DNA of 22,260 nt, taken from IMG/VR virus record IMGVR_UViG_3300035660_000003, positions 1-22,260 of that record. One strand, given 5' to 3'. A program made the translations under genes and the position numbers. Shown here in pieces: positions 5,596-21,412 of this stretch (position 1 is the stretch's first letter; each line of letters opens with the position of its first letter). The notes under the pieces were generated by a model. It was not told the origin of the DNA. It searched no databases and saw only the letters and a program-made list of their open reading frames with translations. The DNA comes from a virus (taxonomy: Duplodnaviria > Heunggongvirae > Uroviricota > Caudoviricetes).

Positions 5596-5630
5596 ATATT
5601 AATCACTTATAAGAAAAAGTATAGAAACTA

Positions 5631-14231: not shown

Positions 14232-14534
14232 CTACGATTTGCAGTAAGTGATTATAAGCATCTTGTGTTTTTTAGACCATTTCGGATAAAATTCACCAGT
14301 AACAATTCTGGATATAAAAACACAACGAATTCTAGCACAATGATTTGATATTCCAAAAATTAAATAACCATCATCCATTGGTTGAAATCCGATTCTTTTA
14401 TTATCTGTATCGTGAAAAATTTTTACTTTTTTACCTTTAAAATATTTCTCATAAAGAGGGATAGAAATAGTTAGAGTTCCATTTTTTTTAATCCGAATAA
14501 AGTTTGTCGGTGGTTTGATTTCTATGAAAGGCAT
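14232..14534 (-). CDS. Small basic beta-rich hypothetical protein (possibly AbrB-like)
   Basis: IRIKKNGTLTISI...KYF...VKIFHD....IGFQP; overlaps the phosphoesterase stop. Confidence 0.6.
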   Translation of the reverse strand: MPFIEIKPPTNFIRIKKNGTLTISIPLYEKYFKGKKVKIFHDTDNKRIGFQPMDDGYLIFGISNHCARIRCVFISRIVTGEFYPKWSKKHKMLIITYCKS

Positions 14535-15526
14535 TTCTCTTCAACGCTTACGAGTTTCTCTGGAACTTTTGGATTGAATCCTATATTTGTGACACACAGT
14601 CTATGAACTTTCATGTATTCGTCTTTGGTGAATCCGAAAGGATAACTTCCGCCCCAGAATTGTAGTCGTCCATATTCATCCATCAACATCATTGCTCCGC
14701 CGAGACTTGGTTGAAACTTAAAGAAGTATTTAATCGTTGCTTTATATGGTGTGTGAGCGAGCCAACATGGAAGTTGATAAGCGTGTTTTCCACTATGGTC
14801 AACATGAAGTGTATGATGTAAATGAGCACGAATAATAGCATCTATTGGTAATGTGGTGTGACTGGCTTCGGATTCTAATGACCAATTTATGTCACGACTC
14901 AATAATGTGGCTGGATAAACCAAAGCAGTAGCGGCTTCATGTGCTATGAATAACCTTCGAGTTCTATCCATACCAGTTAATGCATCTTTTCCACCAAAAA
15001 GTTCAACATATGCTACATCTCTCATATACTTTGCCGTGATTCCAAGAGCCTTTAAACGTTCGACCAATTCTTCATGATGGTCGGCTTCTCCCTTACGACT
15101 TTCATGGTAAGGCGTTCCAGACCAGACTAAGAATATTGGTTTCTTATCGCAACCTTCCCAGACCTCTTGAAGTAATACTGTTGCCATCTTTACTTGGTCA
15201 CTTTTATCAATAACACTTATGAATGCTCCTGCTTCTGCTGGATTCGAACCAGCAATTGCATCACCGACAATGAGTATATATTGAACGGCATATTTCTTGA
15301 AAAGTTCAATGTTTCGTTTCCATAAAATTCTAAGATATTTCTGAATCTTATTGGGTTTGATTATTGTTTCTTCTTTGGTTTCAAACTCTTCTGGACAAAT
15401 ACCTCTTGAAGCTCCACAATGCATATCTGGCAGAAATCCGACTCTGATTGGAAAGATACTCGTAATAACCAAATCGTCTCCTTCAATAGTCATTATTTCT
15501 TTATCTAATTTGGGTTTCTTAACCAT
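14522..15526 (-). CDS. Calcineurin-like metallophosphoesterase
   Basis: Five metal-binding motifs: LPDMHCG, VGDAIAG, SGTPYHE, IAHE, RAHLHH. Start moved from GTG 15535 (part of the GTGAT SD) to ATG 15526. Confidence 0.85.
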   Translation of the reverse strand: MVKKPKLDKEIMTIEGDDLVITSIFPIRVGFLPDMHCGASRGICPEEFETKEETIIKPNKIQKYLRILWKRNIELFKKYAVQYILIVGDAIAGSNPAEAGAFISVIDKSDQVKMATVLLQEVWEGCDKKPIFLVWSGTPYHESRKGEADHHEELVERLKALGITAKYMRDVAYVELFGGKDALTGMDRTRRLFIAHEAATALVYPATLLSRDINWSLESEASHTTLPIDAIIRAHLHHTLHVDHSGKHAYQLPCWLAHTPYKATIKYFFKFQPSLGGAMMLMDEYGRLQFWGGSYPFGFTKDEYMKVHRLCVTNIGFNPKVPEKLVSVEEKCLS

Positions 15527-15560
15527 TCTAATCACTTTGAATATTCTGTGGCATTCGTCC

Positions 15561-15576
15561 TATTTAAAGGTTTCGC
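15561..15576 (-). promoter_or_regulatory. BRE+TATA promoter GCGAAACCTTTAAATA
   Basis: Consensus match, 35 nt upstream of the ATG at 15526. Confidence 0.7.
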
Positions 15577-15592
15577 CTGACTTTTCCATTGT

Positions 15593-15881
15593 TTAATCAA
15601 TTGATTAATCTTTGGGCAAACGCTCAGTTTCGTGCTTAATCAGTTGATTAATCTTTTCGACGGTTTTTCGTCACGAGTCTTCGTATGGATTTTATTGGAT
15701 TTGACATATGTTAAAAAATGGTCGAACAACTACTTCGAACTTAATCAGTTGATTAAGTTTTTCGGTAGATTTCGTATTAGGCAAAATAATTAAACATCCA
15801 ATATTGGTAATAAAATGCCAAAAGATTCAACCGAAAGACTTATACGGACAAATTCGCTAGAATGTTTAATCAATTGATTAA
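15593..15881. repeat. Four copies of the 16-bp palindrome TTAATCA(A/G)TTGATTAA in non-coding DNA
   Basis: Copies at 15593-15608 (perfect), 15636-15651 (A>G), 15741-15756 (A>G) and 15866-15881 (perfect). Confidence 0.95.
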
Positions 15882-16037
15882 TCCGACATAACATTTAAAT
15901 ATGAGTCTGCCCACTTTAATCATGGTGTTCTCAAACATGAATTATAACAAAACAATCAAAAATTCTGACTATATTACATCTGAAATGGTGTGGGTTTGGC
16001 TATTGATGGAAGGTCAACGAAGAAGACCGCTTTAATT

Positions 16038-16343
16038 TTAAAATAATTTTCTTTGAGTCACTTCGTCTTCAACGAGCATTTGACCGAGGCTTTTTGGTCT
16101 CAATTGTTTAATGTTTTCGATGATGCTCCATTCTGATGTTCCTTCGACAGGTTTAATCCATCCATTGATATTCATGATTCCCCAATACTTGTCCTTTGTT
16201 CTTGAGTCATTTCCAATTGCCTGATAATACGGAGTCATTTCAAATTCGAATTTGGTGGCAGATTTACGGTTATTTTGTTCTAGCCAATTTTTTAGTCCAC
16301 AAGCCAACTGCCAAGCCTTATAGTTACTGTTCAATTTTCTCAC
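16038..16343 (-). CDS. Putative winged-helix DNA-binding protein
   Basis: Helix, helix, then DSRTKDKYWGIMNINGWI and a beta-hairpin KPVEGTSEWSI, resembling D.RT..KY...L...G.I wHTH endings. The start may be TTG 16334 (GGTGA SD). Confidence 0.55.
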   Translation of the reverse strand: MRKLNSNYKAWQLACGLKNWLEQNNRKSATKFEFEMTPYYQAIGNDSRTKDKYWGIMNINGWIKPVEGTSEWSIIENIKQLRPKSLGQMLVEDEVTQRKLF

Positions 16344-16473
16344 CTGTCATAGTGAAACCACAATGATTGCATCGGTAACGTCTTTTTCTCCCTTGGAGTG
16401 TGCCTATGTATCCTAATTTCTGCATTCGTTCACTGCATTTGGAACATAATGGATTATCTAAATTTGGTTTCAT
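16324..16473 (-). CDS. 49-aa C2C2 zinc-ribbon protein (not in ORF track)
   Basis: MKPNLDNPLCSKCSERMQKLGYIGTLQGEKRRYRCNHCGFTMTGEKIEQ; GTGATTAAA SD; TATA 30 nt upstream. Confidence 0.8.
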   Translation of the reverse strand: MKPNLDNPLCSKCSERMQKLGYIGTLQGRKRRYRCNHCGFTMTGEKIEQ

Positions 16474-16503
16474 TTTAATCACTAGAGAAGATACACACAC
16501 TCA

Positions 16504-16519
16504 TATTTAAAGATTATGG
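16504..16519 (-). promoter_or_regulatory. BRE+TATA promoter CCATAATCTTTAAATA for the Zn-ribbon/wHTH pair
   Basis: Consensus match with appropriate spacing to the ATG at 16473. Confidence 0.7.
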
Positions 16520-16530
16520 TTTTGCCATCC

Positions 16531-16812
16531 TTTTTTAAAAAATTTTTGTGCGTGTGCAACATTTCAAATGAGCACGTTCGAACGAACGACAAGTAGAGTA
16601 GTCTCATTCGTTGCACTCACAGTAGAGACTCATTCGCACACAGAGACTCATGCACAGACTCATACACTCATACTCATTCATATATACAGCATAGCATAAC
16701 ACAGTCGCACAGCACAGCACAGACGAATTAAAAAGAACACATACACAATCACTAAAGTTCTACACGCACACGCAAACATCGCATAGCACACAACATAGCA
16801 CAGCACAGCCGA
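16531..16812. repeat. Non-coding C/A-skewed tract with nested CTCAT repeats and GCACA/GCATA pentamer runs
   Basis: T6A6 palindrome 16531-16542; CTCAT at 16603, 16629, 16647, 16659, 16667, 16673; (GCACA)3 at 16707-16721; (GCACA)2 at 16798-16807. Confidence 0.85.
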
Positions 16813-16823
16813 CTACAATCACA

Positions 16824-16839
16824 CCGCAAAGTTTAAATA
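16824..16839 (+). promoter_or_regulatory. BRE+TATA promoter CCGCAAAGTTTAAATA
   Basis: Near-perfect window consensus, 26 nt before the ATG at 16866 (probably a leaderless transcript). Confidence 0.75.
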
Positions 16840-16865
16840 TCACAATCTCATAACAATAATAACAG

Positions 16866-17141
16866 ATGAAACCAATGCGACATCTCAAATTTAAATTTAT
16901 GTTACCTACAATATATGGCGGGATATTCTACCATCAAGAGAAGACCATATACATTTATGCCATAAATCTTCCCAAAGAGACTGAAGCAACCTTCGTTGAT
17001 GAGATTGAACAGTTAATCACTCATGAAGTGCTTCATGCCATTGTTTTAAAAGTTACAGGTTCAAGAACTGCTAATAAAATGGACAAAATATTCAAGAAAG
17101 TTTGGCATTGGGATGTAGAAGTATATAATCAACTCTATTAA
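16866..17141 (+). CDS. Minimal HExxH zincin-like metallopeptidase
   Basis: G.FYHQEKTIYI strands followed by the helix LITHEVLHAI. Confidence 0.65.
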   Translation: MKPMRHLKFKFMLPTIYGGIFYHQEKTIYIYAINLPKETEATFVDEIEQLITHEVLHAIVLKVTGSRTANKMDKIFKKVWHWDVEVYNQLY

Positions 17142-17765: not shown

Positions 17766-18224
17766 ATGGTAGTAGCTAGAATAATAAACTGGAAAGTTGG
17801 GGACAATGAAAAAATTATTTTAATGGTTCAAATCGAAATGGAAGGTCAACCCCCAGTAGATATTGAAGCAGAATTGCCATTGGAAGTAGCCAAAGAAATT
17901 GTTACGGAAATGCCCCCATCAGAAGCCACTAGAATCCACGAATTAATTGATTTAATTCACGCTAAAATCACGGAACGAATTTTAACAGTTGAAGCAATTG
18001 CTAAGGAACTTGAAGACCTCAAAACAGAAAATGAAGGTGCAGTTACGGCTCTAAAGGGTGCGACTAAATCATTGGAAATTAAAAAATGGGTTGGAATCAT
18101 CGGAGCTCTTACAACTCGTAAGCAGTTGGTCACGGAAAGAAGACATACTATTAGATTATTAATCAACGAAGAAGCCAATTTGCGAGTTCAACTAAGAGAA
18201 ATACAATTAGGAAAGCGGTCATAA
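17766..18224 (+). CDS. Helical protein directly upstream of TerL; candidate terminase small subunit
   Basis: Position, size and oligomerisation-like helices only; no HTH recognised. Confidence 0.45.
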   Translation: MVVARIINWKVGDNEKIILMVQIEMEGQPPVDIEAELPLEVAKEIVTEMPPSEATRIHELIDLIHAKITERILTVEAIAKELEDLKTENEGAVTALKGATKSLEIKKWVGIIGALTTRKQLVTERRHTIRLLINEEANLRVQLREIQLGKRS

Positions 18225-18225
18225 A

Positions 18226-19923
18226 ATGCCTAAAACACGTTCAGTTTACGACGAAGAATTAAAAATGATGGAAAAATTTAGAGGCAATCCGCAATTAACA
18301 AGAGAATATTCAGAATGGCGAAGAAAATGGCGGTTGGCAGGTCCAGTAAGATTTGCTCTCGAAGTCCTTCAAATAGACCCAAATACTGGAAATCATCTCG
18401 AACTTTCAGGAGACCAAATAGAATTTCTGGAAGATTTGGCTTCTGGAAGAGTTAGATTAGCAGTTATAGTGGCTGGTCGTGGTGCAGGTAAAACGTTTGT
18501 TTTGGCTGTTTATGTAATGTGGCGAGTTTTTACACATGAAAATTGGCATATTGCCTGTATGGGTGGTTCGAGTGAACAGTCTGATAAGATTCATGCATTT
18601 ATTACGGGATGGATTAATAATAGTGATGATTTGAAGAAATATAAGTTGAAACTCATTGAGAAGGAAGTCAAAAGTTTAGCCAATGGTTCTGCAACATTTC
18701 ATGCTTGCTCAGGCACATCAATTCGAGGTCCACATACTCACGATGTTATTATAGATGAAGAAGCCTCTGGTGAAGAGGCGGGCGGAACAAGATTCATCAG
18801 AGCGGCTATTTGGGAAGTTTCAACCAGTCCTGATATTCACATCATAAAGGCTTCAACTGCTCACTTTATTCATGGCGATTTCATTCAAACTTGGAATAAC
18901 GCTGAAAAACTTGGTTACAAACGTTATAGATGGGCGATAGTGAGACACACATCTGGAGAAAAAGACCCATATAAAATTTACACAGATATGAATCCCAAAA
19001 ACTGGTTGTCAAACCTTCCTTGGATGCCAGACAGAAATGTTCCAATTCTTAGAAGCGATAAATCAAATGATGAGTGGTTAGTCGAGGCTCTCGGCGGAAT
19101 AAGCATTTCATCAGGTCTAGTATTTAATCCAAACGATGTTGATTCATGTGTGTGCACATATTGTCCTGACCACGATTTACAATGCATACCATATAAAGAA
19201 GGATATTGTCCAATGGTTCAATCATTTCTTCAATTATGTGGTGTGCCTGAAGAAATGATTCCCGTATCCAATAGATTGGCATTGATGCAATTTGTTAAAG
19301 AAAGAATTATGGGAATAGATTGGGGCGAAGCATCTCCATGTGCTTATTCAGCCGTCGGCAGATTCCGAGATTTTATCTTTGTTTTAATTAGTCAGGAATT
19401 TGTTGGACAAACTGATTCGGAGAAAATCCATTTTGCTTCTGAATTAGCAAAAAATCTTCAAATTGAGATTATCCGTCCAGACCCAAGAGAATGGGCTTAC
19501 AATAATGCCTTGTCAAATTTGGGTTTTGCCGTTCATAAGCTATTCAATGTTGAAGGTGGAAAAGATAAAACTCAATATGTTTATACGGTTAAACGATATA
19601 TTGAACGTCATATGATTGTCATTCCATGTGCTTTTGAGGATTTAATTAGAAGTCTTAAACAATTGTCTTATGATGAACATGGAGTTATTCGCAAACAAGA
19701 CGACCATAGTTTTGATTCTCTTTTATACGCTATGAGTTATTATGGAGAAGTTGTTGGACATTCACCATTTTGGCGGGCAATGCAAAAACTGACTGATACA
19801 TATACTTATGAACTTACAGAAGATGATACTCAAACCAAAAAAGAAATAAAAACAAGTGAACAAGACCAAAGTGACCCATGGTCCAAAGTATGGGGCGGGT
19901 TCGATTTGTGGGGGAAAAAGTAA
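18226..19923 (+). CDS. terL: Terminase large subunit
   Basis: Q motif (LSGDQ), Walker A AGRGAGKT, Walker B VIIDEE, nuclease GIDWG and DDHSFDSLLY. Confidence 0.95.
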   Translation: MPKTRSVYDEELKMMEKFRGNPQLTREYSEWRRKWRLAGPVRFALEVLQIDPNTGNHLELSGDQIEFLEDLASGRVRLAVIVAGRGAGKTFVLAVYVMWRVFTHENWHIACMGGSSEQSDKIHAFITGWINNSDDLKKYKLKLIEKEVKSLANGSATFHACSGTSIRGPHTHDVIIDEEASGEEAGGTRFIRAAIWEVSTSPDIHIIKASTAHFIHGDFIQTWNNAEKLGYKRYRWAIVRHTSGEKDPYKIYTDMNPKNWLSNLPWMPDRNVPILRSDKSNDEWLVEALGGISISSGLVFNPNDVDSCVCTYCPDHDLQCIPYKEGYCPMVQSFLQLCGVPEEMIPVSNRLALMQFVKERIMGIDWGEASPCAYSAVGRFRDFIFVLISQEFVGQTDSEKIHFASELAKNLQIEIIRPDPREWAYNNALSNLGFAVHKLFNVEGGKDKTQYVYTVKRYIERHMIVIPCAFEDLIRSLKQLSYDEHGVIRKQDDHSFDSLLYAMSYYGEVVGHSPFWRAMQKLTDTYTYELTEDDTQTKKEIKTSEQDQSDPWSKVWGGFDLWGKK

Positions 19924-20364: not shown

Positions 20365-21001
20365 AATGGTAAAGAAGTTCAGCGAAATTATGCTCAAAGA
20401 ATATTATAATCAATCTGTTACTGGAAGAACTGGGTTGCATCGTTCAGATGCGATTTCTTGTCCATTGAAAGCGTATTTTCGGATTACAAAACAAATAGAG
20501 GCAATTTATTCAAGTCAGGATGTTGGAATGTTATTGTTGGGAACACTTGCTCACATTGCCTTACATAAGAATTTTGAGGCACAGGAAAAAGTCTTTACAA
20601 TTGCTGACCAGTTATATATCACCGTTGATGCACTATATGGTAAGTTTCCCATCGAGAGCAAATCAACACGTAAAAAAATCTATCGAAAGGAAGATTTACC
20701 TCAATCATGGTTGGAACAATTGGCGATTGCAATGTCGGTGATGAAGGTGGATACTGGATATTTGATGGTCTTAAATATTATTAATTATAGTTTGACGGTT
20801 TGGGAAATAACGATGACGGAAGAAGAAAGGGAAATGTTCCTTCAAAATTGTATTTGGCAAATTCTGGCAATTTTGGATTCCATTCAAAAACTCAAGCCAG
20901 AAATATTAACGCCAAAAATCGATGAGTGTAAATATTGCCCATACAGACCGCTAAGGGTTCGTGAGGGCTGTCCGTATTATGTAAAACCGAAAGAAGATTA
21001 G
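20342..21001 (+). CDS. Stand-alone Cas4-like PD-(D/E)XK exonuclease with Fe-S cysteines
   Basis: H.S....CP.KAY, LGT.AH, VDAL...IESK, EQL, CKYCPY......CP. Start moved to ATG 20342. Confidence 0.8.
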   Translation: MRIQHNAEMVKKFSEIMLKEYYNQSVTGRTGLHRSDAISCPLKAYFRITKQIEAIYSSQDVGMLLLGTLAHIALHKNFEAQEKVFTIADQLYITVDALYGKFPIESKSTRKKIYRKEDLPQSWLEQLAIAMSVMKVDTGYLMVLNIINYSLTVWEITMTEEEREMFLQNCIWQILAILDSIQKLKPEILTPKIDECKYCPYRPLRVREGCPYYVKPKED

Positions 21002-21333
21002 TCTTTTTTGTCTCTAAGTTCTGGCGGTAAAACTTCTTCATTATAATCAAGTCGTTTTAGAACGAGTTCAACTTCCATTTTTGGATTCAGACCTTTTACA
21101 GCAAGTAAAAGTTTCTTCAATCGTCTGTGGCTCATTATTTTTCCGCTATCTTCTTTCCATTCACGTTCTTCGTCCAGAAAAACCTCTGGATAATGAATCG
21201 CCAACCAAAGTAACATATCAAGTTCTCGCTCAATGCGTTTCTGAATACGATTCATATAAACGCAATGTTTGATGGTTTTCTTTGGCTGTTCAGGCAATGT
21301 TTCAAGATATACCTTCATTTTTTTGGTAATCAT
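20998..21333 (-). CDS. Hypothetical helical protein whose promoter carries the 16-bp palindrome
   Basis: GTGAT SD; own TATA at 21377-21384. Confidence 0.7.
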   Translation of the reverse strand: MITKKMKVYLETLPEQPKKTIKHCVYMNRIQKRIERELDMLLWLAIHYPEVFLDEEREWKEDSGKIMSHRRLKKLLLAVKGLNPKMEVELVLKRLDYNEEVLPPELRDKKD

Positions 21334-21347
21334 TTTATCACTTTCTG

Positions 21348-21365
21348 TTTAATCAATTGATTAAA
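21348..21365. promoter_or_regulatory. Fifth copy of the palindrome (TTTAATCAATTGATTAAA, perfect 18 bp); putative operator
   Basis: Shares TGTTTAATCAATTGATTAA with the copies at 15593 and 15866. Confidence 0.8.
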
Positions 21366-21376
21366 CGCATAACAAG

Positions 21377-21412
21377 TATATAAACTTTACGGTTTTTTCG
21401 CAACCTTTATAT
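21377..21412. promoter_or_regulatory. Back-to-back divergent promoters CCGTAAAGTTTATATA (minus) and CGCAACCTTTATAT (plus)
   Basis: Both match the window consensus; they serve the 111-aa gene and the TAC/tape-measure operon. Confidence 0.75.

Follow-up and report, generated by a model that had tools for sequence, protein, structure and literature searches.

A noncoding gap with four palindromes and two predicted promoters

The DNA window analyzed here (22,260 nt) comprises bases 1 to 22260 of a 112,412-bp virus record (IMG/VR IMGVR_UViG_3300035660_000003, hereafter G000), and the element of concern is a 16-bp palindrome that occurs four times in a noncoding gap near 15.6 kb. Because the virus carries genes for MCM, a family-B DNA polymerase (PolB), an archaeal LonB, and a Top6A-like protein, we regard it as an archaeal tailed virus. 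The gap extends for approximately 510 bp from the start of a 334-aa gene at 15526 to the end of a 101-aa gene at 16038, both of which are encoded on the minus strand, and it holds no credible open reading frame (ORF). A first-pass annotation of the locus had described this gap and an array of the form TTAATCA(A/G)TTGATTAA within it, and these descriptions proved exact. All four copies are present at the positions claimed, the outer two are perfect and share a TGT prefix, the inner two both have G in place of A at position 8, and the recomputed start-to-start spacings are 43, 105, and 125 bp. The features of the gap and of the gene that it precedes are listed below, wherein distances are given from the center of the palindrome to the start of the TATA box.

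14522 to 15526, minus strand: 334-aa gene, which opens the leftward head-module operon that P_left is predicted to serve
15561 to 15575, minus strand: P_left, predicted core promoter (TATA box TTTAAATA at 15561 to 15568; B recognition element, BRE, CGAAACC at 15569 to 15575)
15593 to 15608: site 1, perfect palindrome; the proximal site of P_left, centered at −32.5
15636 to 15651: site 2, A>G variant, centered at −75.5 as the distal site of P_left and 43 bp from site 1
15741 to 15756: site 3, A>G variant; located between P_left and P_right, within a stretch of approximately 65 nt that is nearly invariant among relatives
15864 to 15902, plus strand: P_right, a predicted promoter-operator cassette of 39 nt (site 4, 5 nt, BRE CATAACA at 15887 to 15893, TATA box TTTAAATA at 15894 to 15901)
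15866 to 15881: site 4, perfect palindrome; the proximal site of P_right, centered at −20.5
15920 to 16037, plus strand: putative P_right transcript of approximately 115 nt, converging on the 101-aa gene

P_left precedes the ATG at 15526 by approximately 35 nt, and a Shine-Dalgarno-like word, GTGAT, stands in between. On the minus strand, 24 nt separate site 1 from TTTAAATA, and the BRE CGAAACC comes directly before the latter. This core is kept in two related loci (L131 and L130) and in contig C107 of the genome bin G002 (G002:C107). The P_right cassette is identical at 38 of its 39 positions to a module that precedes the MCM gene on the minus strand (99182 to 99144), and in L131 and L130 its BRE and TATA box are kept with different letters. 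The mirror arrangement of P_left and P_right would account both for the perfect match and common prefix of the two outer sites and for a 42-nt inverted repeat that is present in the gap.

The array is not a chance feature of base composition. When up to two mismatches are allowed, the window yields 10 strand-matches, compared with 0.31 expected, and none of 100 shuffled sequences reached 10. The array is real but it is not unique, since a fifth copy starts at 21349 and a scan of the whole genome at the same threshold finds 37 sites, whereas the reversed motif finds none. These sites fall at 19 places, which include pairs, singles, and five clusters of three to six sites, located at 15.6 kb (4 sites), 37.7 to 39.0 kb (6), 42.5 kb (3), 44.5 kb (3), and 45.6 kb (3). 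All but two of the 37 sites lie entirely inside the noncoding portion of the genome, which ORF calling puts at 17%, and nearly all separate successive genes that point in the same direction.

Palindromes are enriched at two distances upstream of predicted promoters

To relate the 37 sites to transcription signals, BRE/TATA-like words were scanned and the distances were compared with those of random intergenic positions. Measured to the TATA start, seven sites are centered at −16.5 to −22.5, another three at −32.5 to −36.5, and about ten at −65 to −81. Accordingly placed windows capture this preference. The proximal window (−14 to −40) contains 11 sites, compared with 3.1 expected, and the distal window (−60 to −85) contains 11, compared with 2.1 expected; in neither case did any of 1000 randomizations reach 11. 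Downstream of the TATA box there is no enrichment (1 site versus 3.3 expected), and of all sites only the fifth copy in the window, site 5, follows a TATA box that has a good BRE, at +27.5. Fixed positions upstream of BRE/TATA elements are as would be expected if the palindromes have a role in gene regulation.

Sequence constraint suggests recognition by a dimeric protein

Relatives of the locus were reached via TerL homologues, via homologues of a 111-aa protein described below, and by alignment. Between the window and L131, the arms of the four palindromes are identical at 56 of 56 positions, whereas the central two bases agree at 6 of 8, the 10-nt flanks at 84%, and the rest of the gap at 71%. 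The central dinucleotide varies freely (AT, GT, GC, GG, and GA); at site 3, for example, it is AC on the minus strand of the window and GT in relatives. Where the arms do change among relatives, they change symmetrically: TTAAGC...GCTTAA is found in L124, L134, L137, and L128, TTAACC...GGTTAA in L153, and a TTAAAY type in L129. Moreover, the arm variant is the same at all sites within a given genome or locus. The present genome has 35 sites of the TC type and none of the GC type, the latter being found in that count only in L124 and L128, and a complete relative of 93.7 kb (G001) carries its own degenerate variant 22 times, compared with 3 times for the control. Flanking the palindrome is an extended consensus, AAAAGA-palindrome-TCTTTT, that is nearly symmetric and shows only a slight strand bias.

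The use of one sequence per genome, together with symmetric changes in the arms and a free center, suggests that the sites co-evolve with a dimeric protein acting in trans, rather than merely forming a hairpin. This pattern supports the view, already put forward in the first-pass annotation, that the palindromes are recognized by a dimeric, sequence-specific, and probably virus-encoded protein. Taken together with the promoter positions, it leads us to consider it likely that the palindromes serve as operators or upstream elements for a single dimeric regulator, and that the four copies at 15.6 kb are part of this 37-site set, here arranged around two divergent promoters.

A competing explanation is that the palindromes are nucleic-acid structures, or roadblocks formed by protein, between transcription units, such as bidirectional terminators, insulators, or stoperator-like elements, which halt read-through rather than tune promoters. 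The placement of sites between co-directional genes suits this idea, as does the potential of AAAAGA-palindrome-TCTTTT to form, on either strand, a stem of 12 bp with a T-run, and runs of five to seven T residues follow several sites on the minus strand. However, the stems are short and AT-rich, not G+C-rich, and the copies are identical within the genome, which is not required of a hairpin. Conservation extends to positions 7 and 10 even though a loop of 2 nt is impossible, and unpaired substitutions occur in L128, L137, L139, and L150. The tight distances to the TATA box at seven promoters also speak against termination, and site 5 is part of a 5′ leader, so that a terminator there would silence the very gene that it precedes. 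We consider this explanation improbable.

Isolated half-sites of the form TTAATCA were observed at 5599, 7120, 10782, 14029, and 16475. These correspond to the reverse of the ribosome-binding consensus of the virus, which reads (G)GTGATTAA followed by 0 to 3 nt and ATG, and from which the palindrome arm TTGATTAA is one letter away.

Strain comparison separates a fixed pair of sites from a variable array

The four-site array was compared with its counterparts in close relatives, as follows.

This window: sites 1, 2, 3, and 4; spacings 43, 105, and 125 bp
L131 (334-aa protein 97.6% identical): sites 1, 2, 3, and 4; spacings 43, 106, and 123 bp
L130 (close relative): sites 2, 3, and 4; spacings 107 bp (2 to 3) and 81 bp (3 to 4)
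G002:C107 (near-identical strain that carries the 101-aa gene): sites 1, 2, and 3; spacings 43 bp (1 to 2) and 104 bp (2 to 3)

Site 1 is kept in L131 and G002:C107, and is lost from L130 together with exactly one 43-bp unit. Site 4 is absent from G002:C107 owing to a 129-bp deletion that also removes P_right, and in a contig of sequencing run X2 it is replaced, positions 15798 to 15886 giving way to 40 other letters without a palindrome. The P_right module is thus dispensable in sister strains, as judged from their sequences. In the more distant relatives L123, L124, L126, and L127, only one site precedes the homologous promoter; in L123 and L126 the 334-aa protein is 59% identical.

The first-pass annotation had read the four sites as one helically phased unit, and had named arbitrary spacing or loss of sites in relatives as grounds for giving up that reading. 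Its arithmetic is right, in that the probability of a spacing being no more than 1 bp away from a multiple of 10.5 bp is 0.23, or 0.0125 when cubed for three spacings, but the phasing is not upheld outside the array. Among other pairs separated by 130 bp or less, five of nine fall within 0.15 turn (P = 0.10), and across the genome adjacent spacings of up to 300 bp are not phased at 10.5 bp (Rayleigh p = 0.26). In relatives, the spacings are not conserved modulo the helical repeat, and we do not regard the array as a phased four-site unit. Only the 43-bp spacing of sites 1 and 2 is invariant wherever both are kept, and the same distance recurs at 78706/78749. A pair of sites separated by approximately four turns fits an arrangement in which two dimers would occupy one face of the helix at a single promoter.

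Separately, spacings of up to 300 bp cluster near 5 modulo 10, corresponding to half-turns of a 10.0-bp repeat (R = 0.58, p = 0.006), an observation made post hoc after five repeat lengths had been tried. Most contig joints and loose ends at 15591, 15636, 15762, 15864, and 15902 correspond to other genomic copies of the repeats and are not variants of the locus.

The gain and loss of sites among strains raises the question of whether the repeats are mobile regulatory cassettes or recombination hot spots, similar to PeSL elements, whose main effect is to shuffle modules and for which protein binding is secondary. Indeed, the 39-nt module is duplicated at two distant loci, the module containing site 4 and P_right is found in some near-identical strains but missing from or replaced in others, the breakpoints in runs X2 and X3 being at 15887, and the loss of site 1 involved precisely one 43-bp unit. 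Against this, the indel of a cassette carrying the neighboring 101-aa and 58-aa genes ends at 16027 and not at a palindrome. Furthermore, the strong purifying selection on the arms and their fixed positions relative to promoters indicate that the arms have a function of their own. As a self-sufficient explanation we give the cassette proposal only a slim chance; it is compatible with the palindromes being operators and does not take the place of that reading.

A candidate regulator is encoded downstream of site 5

The fifth palindrome in the window, 5.5 kb from the array, differs from the others in its relation to a promoter, and is accompanied by the following features.

21377 to 21391, minus strand: predicted core promoter of the 111-aa gene (TATA box TTTATATA at 21377 to 21384; BRE CGTAAAG at 21385 to 21391)
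21349 to 21364: site 5, a perfect copy that covers the expected transcription start of the 111-aa gene, flanked by that gene's TATA box and Shine-Dalgarno word
20998 to 21333, minus strand: gene for a basic 111-aa protein (isoelectric point 9.1), the candidate palindrome binder

The 111-aa gene is the sole gene in the genome with a site between its TATA box and start codon. This layout, wherein BRE/TATA is followed by 10 to 14 nt, a palindrome, a Shine-Dalgarno word, and the start codon, is kept before the homologous gene in approximately 30 relatives, each of which has its own arm variant. Across 31 relatives the protein itself is 45 to 92% identical. The location of site 5 over the transcription start of this gene, as expected for autorepression, makes the 111-aa protein the most likely binder.

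An AlphaFold2 model of the 111-aa protein is helical, with a predicted local distance difference test (pLDDT) score of 79. The homodimer model scored 0.66, compared with 0.00 for the best control. Of proteins with solved structures, 20 of 30 homodimers and 1 of 23 single chains attain that mark. Runs of the prediction agree in at least 81% of contacts, and the pLDDT of the partner chain is at least 66. The modeled interface is formed by residues 37 to 54 and 71 to 83, which leaves free the basic N-terminal half of a long helix (residues 19 to 36, with six K/R and one D/E). The model supports formation of a dimer; it does not by itself imply DNA binding. Within the family, residue position 35 is E or T where the arms are TTAATC and S or D where other arm types are present.

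Two tandem operators separated by approximately 22 bp, or about two turns, were observed between the TATA box and the start codon at L157 (6951 to 6988) and upstream of the 111-aa homologue in L163.

From this layout we regard the 111-aa protein as a candidate binder of the palindrome whose prospects fall just short of even. A more far-reaching proposal, which we put forward still more tentatively, is that the 111-aa protein is the first member of a new family of master regulators that bind DNA as dimers and have a fold not described before, that it represses its own promoter and controls approximately 35 further promoters from upstream, and that its specificity (TTAATC, TTAAGC, TTAACC, or TTAAAY) co-evolves with its operators across sediment archaeal viruses. 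If true, the 111-aa regulon would be the largest known for an archaeal virus.

A model for the array and its weak points

The operator reading can be expressed as the following scheme. A dimeric regulator would bind the palindromes throughout the genome. Upstream of P_left, the predicted promoter of the head-module operon, two dimers would occupy sites 1 and 2 on one face of the helix. Site 4, which is 5 nt upstream of a BRE, would serve the rightward promoter of the type found before the MCM gene, and site 3 is located in the conserved block between the two. A regulator bound next to the BRE might modulate the recruitment of TFB and TBP. For the upstream sites, activation is the more likely outcome by the precedents of TrmBL1 and TFB-RF1. 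By analogy with SvtR, AvtR, and F55, site 5 may mediate negative autoregulation of the 111-aa gene.

Several observations weigh against this scheme or against the identity of its regulator. On either strand, A-rich sequence precedes the palindromes and T-rich sequence follows them, a composition that would also suit a bidirectional terminator or insulator. The conserved CGAAA-rich flanks of sites 2 and 3 fall outside the operator model. Specifically, the word TTTCG (CGAAA on the minus strand, and BRE-like) occurs six times in the gap between 15571 and 15775, at 12 per kb compared with 2.5 per kb genome-wide, and sites 2 and 3 share with a site at genome position 40030 a flank, hardly changed among relatives, that consists of the palindrome, TCTTTTCG, 3 to 5 nt, and TTTCG. 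No TATA box follows these words in the gap. The 111-aa protein has no match to a Pfam family or to a known DNA-binding fold; its model found nothing above background in the PDB (Foldseek, VIA wide), clusters of the AlphaFold Database, ESM Atlas, or BFVD, and neither a profile search of PDB sequences nor a feature search of ESM Atlas gave a match. We set aside the covariation between residue 35 and the operator as evidence, since the tree backbone is not resolved and the GC class could have a single origin, and the correspondence has exceptions in L134, L139, L149, and L156. Finally, it is possible that the binder is another viral protein or a host protein.

Origin of replication and packaging site as unlikely alternative functions

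The array had also been proposed to be a replication origin, in which an initiator would assemble on iteron-like or ORB-like repeats and melt the DNA. A cluster of four repeats in an AT-rich noncoding gap of 500 bp is the kind of setting where such an origin might be sought, a copy of the promoter-operator module precedes the MCM helicase gene, and there is a local minimum of cumulative GC skew near 17 kb. However, the skew turns at approximately 17 kb and 30 kb exactly where the coding strand switches, and its extremes track the coding strand throughout the genome. No initiator gene is adjacent, the neighbors being a head-module gene and orphan genes, and MCM and PolB are encoded 83 kb away. 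The dispersal of 37 sites over 19 places, including four other clusters of three to six sites, is also contrary to what the proposal claims, as are the loss of site 1 or site 4 from sister strains and the fixed positions of the sites relative to BRE and TATA elements. An origin function is very unlikely. Least credible of all is a pac site for the small terminase encoded 2 kb away, for despite the proximity of terS (17766 to 18224) and terL (18226 to 19923), dispersal of the motif over the whole genome would destroy packaging specificity, and contigs show no ends in the array beyond graph breaks induced by repeats.

Of the roles first proposed for this DNA, those of a binding site for a dimeric protein and of a regulatory region have stood, whereas those of an origin, a pac site, and a uniquely phased switch have not. 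In our view this is an ordinary regulatory region, with four similar clusters elsewhere in the genome, and not an origin or a unique master switch.

Neighboring genes and the putative P_right transcript

The 101-aa gene and an adjacent gene for a 58-aa, zinc ribbon-like protein (16038 to 16500) are orphans whose homologues consist of two near-identical clusters plus G002:C107. The first-pass annotation had called the 101-aa protein winged helix-like, a label for which we found no support, as the protein has no Pfam or PHROG match; its AlphaFold2 model (a helix, four strands, and a helix) has a pLDDT of 50, which is too poor to judge. Both genes are missing from L131 and L130, where approximately 200 bp of other sequence replaces positions 16028 to 16820 of the window. 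Both were considered as cognate binders of the palindrome and rejected, since they are absent from all relatives that keep the array, distant ones included, other than near-identical strains. The 334-aa protein on the opposite side of the gap has no Pfam or PDB sequence match.

The putative P_right transcript is probably noncoding. In L131 and L130 the corresponding stretch is approximately 78% conserved and contains indels whose lengths are not divisible by three, and a 37-aa ORF within it is only 53% identical in L131. A hairpin is predicted at 15957 to 16011 on the plus strand, with weak support (20 pairs from three sequences, two of them compensated). An Rfam search of 15300 to 17000 gave no match.

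Source genome and relatives

The virus record ends in a direct repeat of exactly 127 bp (1 to 127 and 112286 to 112412). Because 127 bp is a common maximum word length of assemblers, this repeat is probably an assembly overlap from a circular or permuted genome, and not a pair of physical genome ends. No tRNA genes were found in the 112,412 bp. The sequencing runs listed as containing this sequence are all of DNA. A search for related loci with the TerL protein alone returned no relatives, and an exact-motif scan of viral contigs returned only single chance matches among the matches listed. No occurrence of the 16-mer palindrome was found in the literature searched.

Among genome contigs, a scan for homologues of the 111-aa protein found one, in the G002 bin. 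This bin of 1.3 Mb, which is assigned to an "uncultured archaeon" and holds L170, contains 20 palindrome copies over nine contigs (C5, C9, C26, C32, C78, C107, C123, C132, and C195). C107 is the orthologue of the array, and C123 carries the 111-aa gene, 90% identical. These contigs look like fragments of a sister virus that were binned with an archaeal genome, and hence they provide no evidence on the host.

Comparison with known regulatory systems

Transcription control in archaeal tailed viruses is almost unstudied, and the cis-element described here is defined by sequence alone, through where it occurs, how it varies between strains, and which variants relatives carry. What is new is the anatomy of the array at the level of individual promoters, the strain comparison that decides the matter of phasing, and a candidate regulator that can be tested. 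Four known systems offer points of comparison. The PeSL cassettes of T4-type phages, reportedly described by Arbiol and colleagues in 2010, combine bacterial sigma-70 promoters with a terminator-like stem-loop and are not known to have a dedicated binding protein. The present elements may resemble them in that modules of a promoter plus a palindrome are located between small genes, have near-identical copies at distant loci, and are linked to the gain and loss of modules between strains.

The stoperators of cluster A mycobacteriophages (L5 gp71 type) are asymmetric 13-bp sites that are bound by a monomer, are oriented with transcription, and act on elongation (PMC9283540). Like the palindromes, they are dozens of near-identical sites dispersed over a genome, mostly in short intergenic regions, and their sequence co-evolves with immunity specificity. 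In contrast, the sites described here are not asymmetric and instead have a perfectly palindromic core at set distances upstream of promoters.

A cellular parallel is provided by TrmBL1/Tgr, which recognizes the Thermococcales glycolytic motif TATCAC-N5-GTGATA, wherein upstream sites activate and sites downstream of the TATA box repress (PMC4706686). The likeness consists of a palindrome at many promoters of one genome whose effect depends, or in the virus would depend, on position, and in the present virus 22 sites are upstream and one is downstream, at the gene of the candidate itself. TrmBL1 differs in being a cellular, sugar-sensing, winged-helix protein, whereas the present element is viral and known from its sequence only, and the candidate matches no fold.

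Also comparable are the autoregulating regulators of archaeal viruses, AvtR of AFV6 (approximately eight sites), SvtR of SIRV1 (four sites), and F55 of SSV1, which bind at several genomic sites (PMC5569661). As proposed for the 111-aa protein, these are small viral dimeric regulators with repeats in several promoters, including their own, and AvtR both activates and represses. They are ribbon-helix-helix proteins from non-tailed crenarchaeal viruses with four to eight sites, whereas the system described here comprises 37 sites in a tailed virus of 112 kb, a strict 16-bp palindrome, and an all-helical candidate that lacks the ribbon-helix-helix fold.

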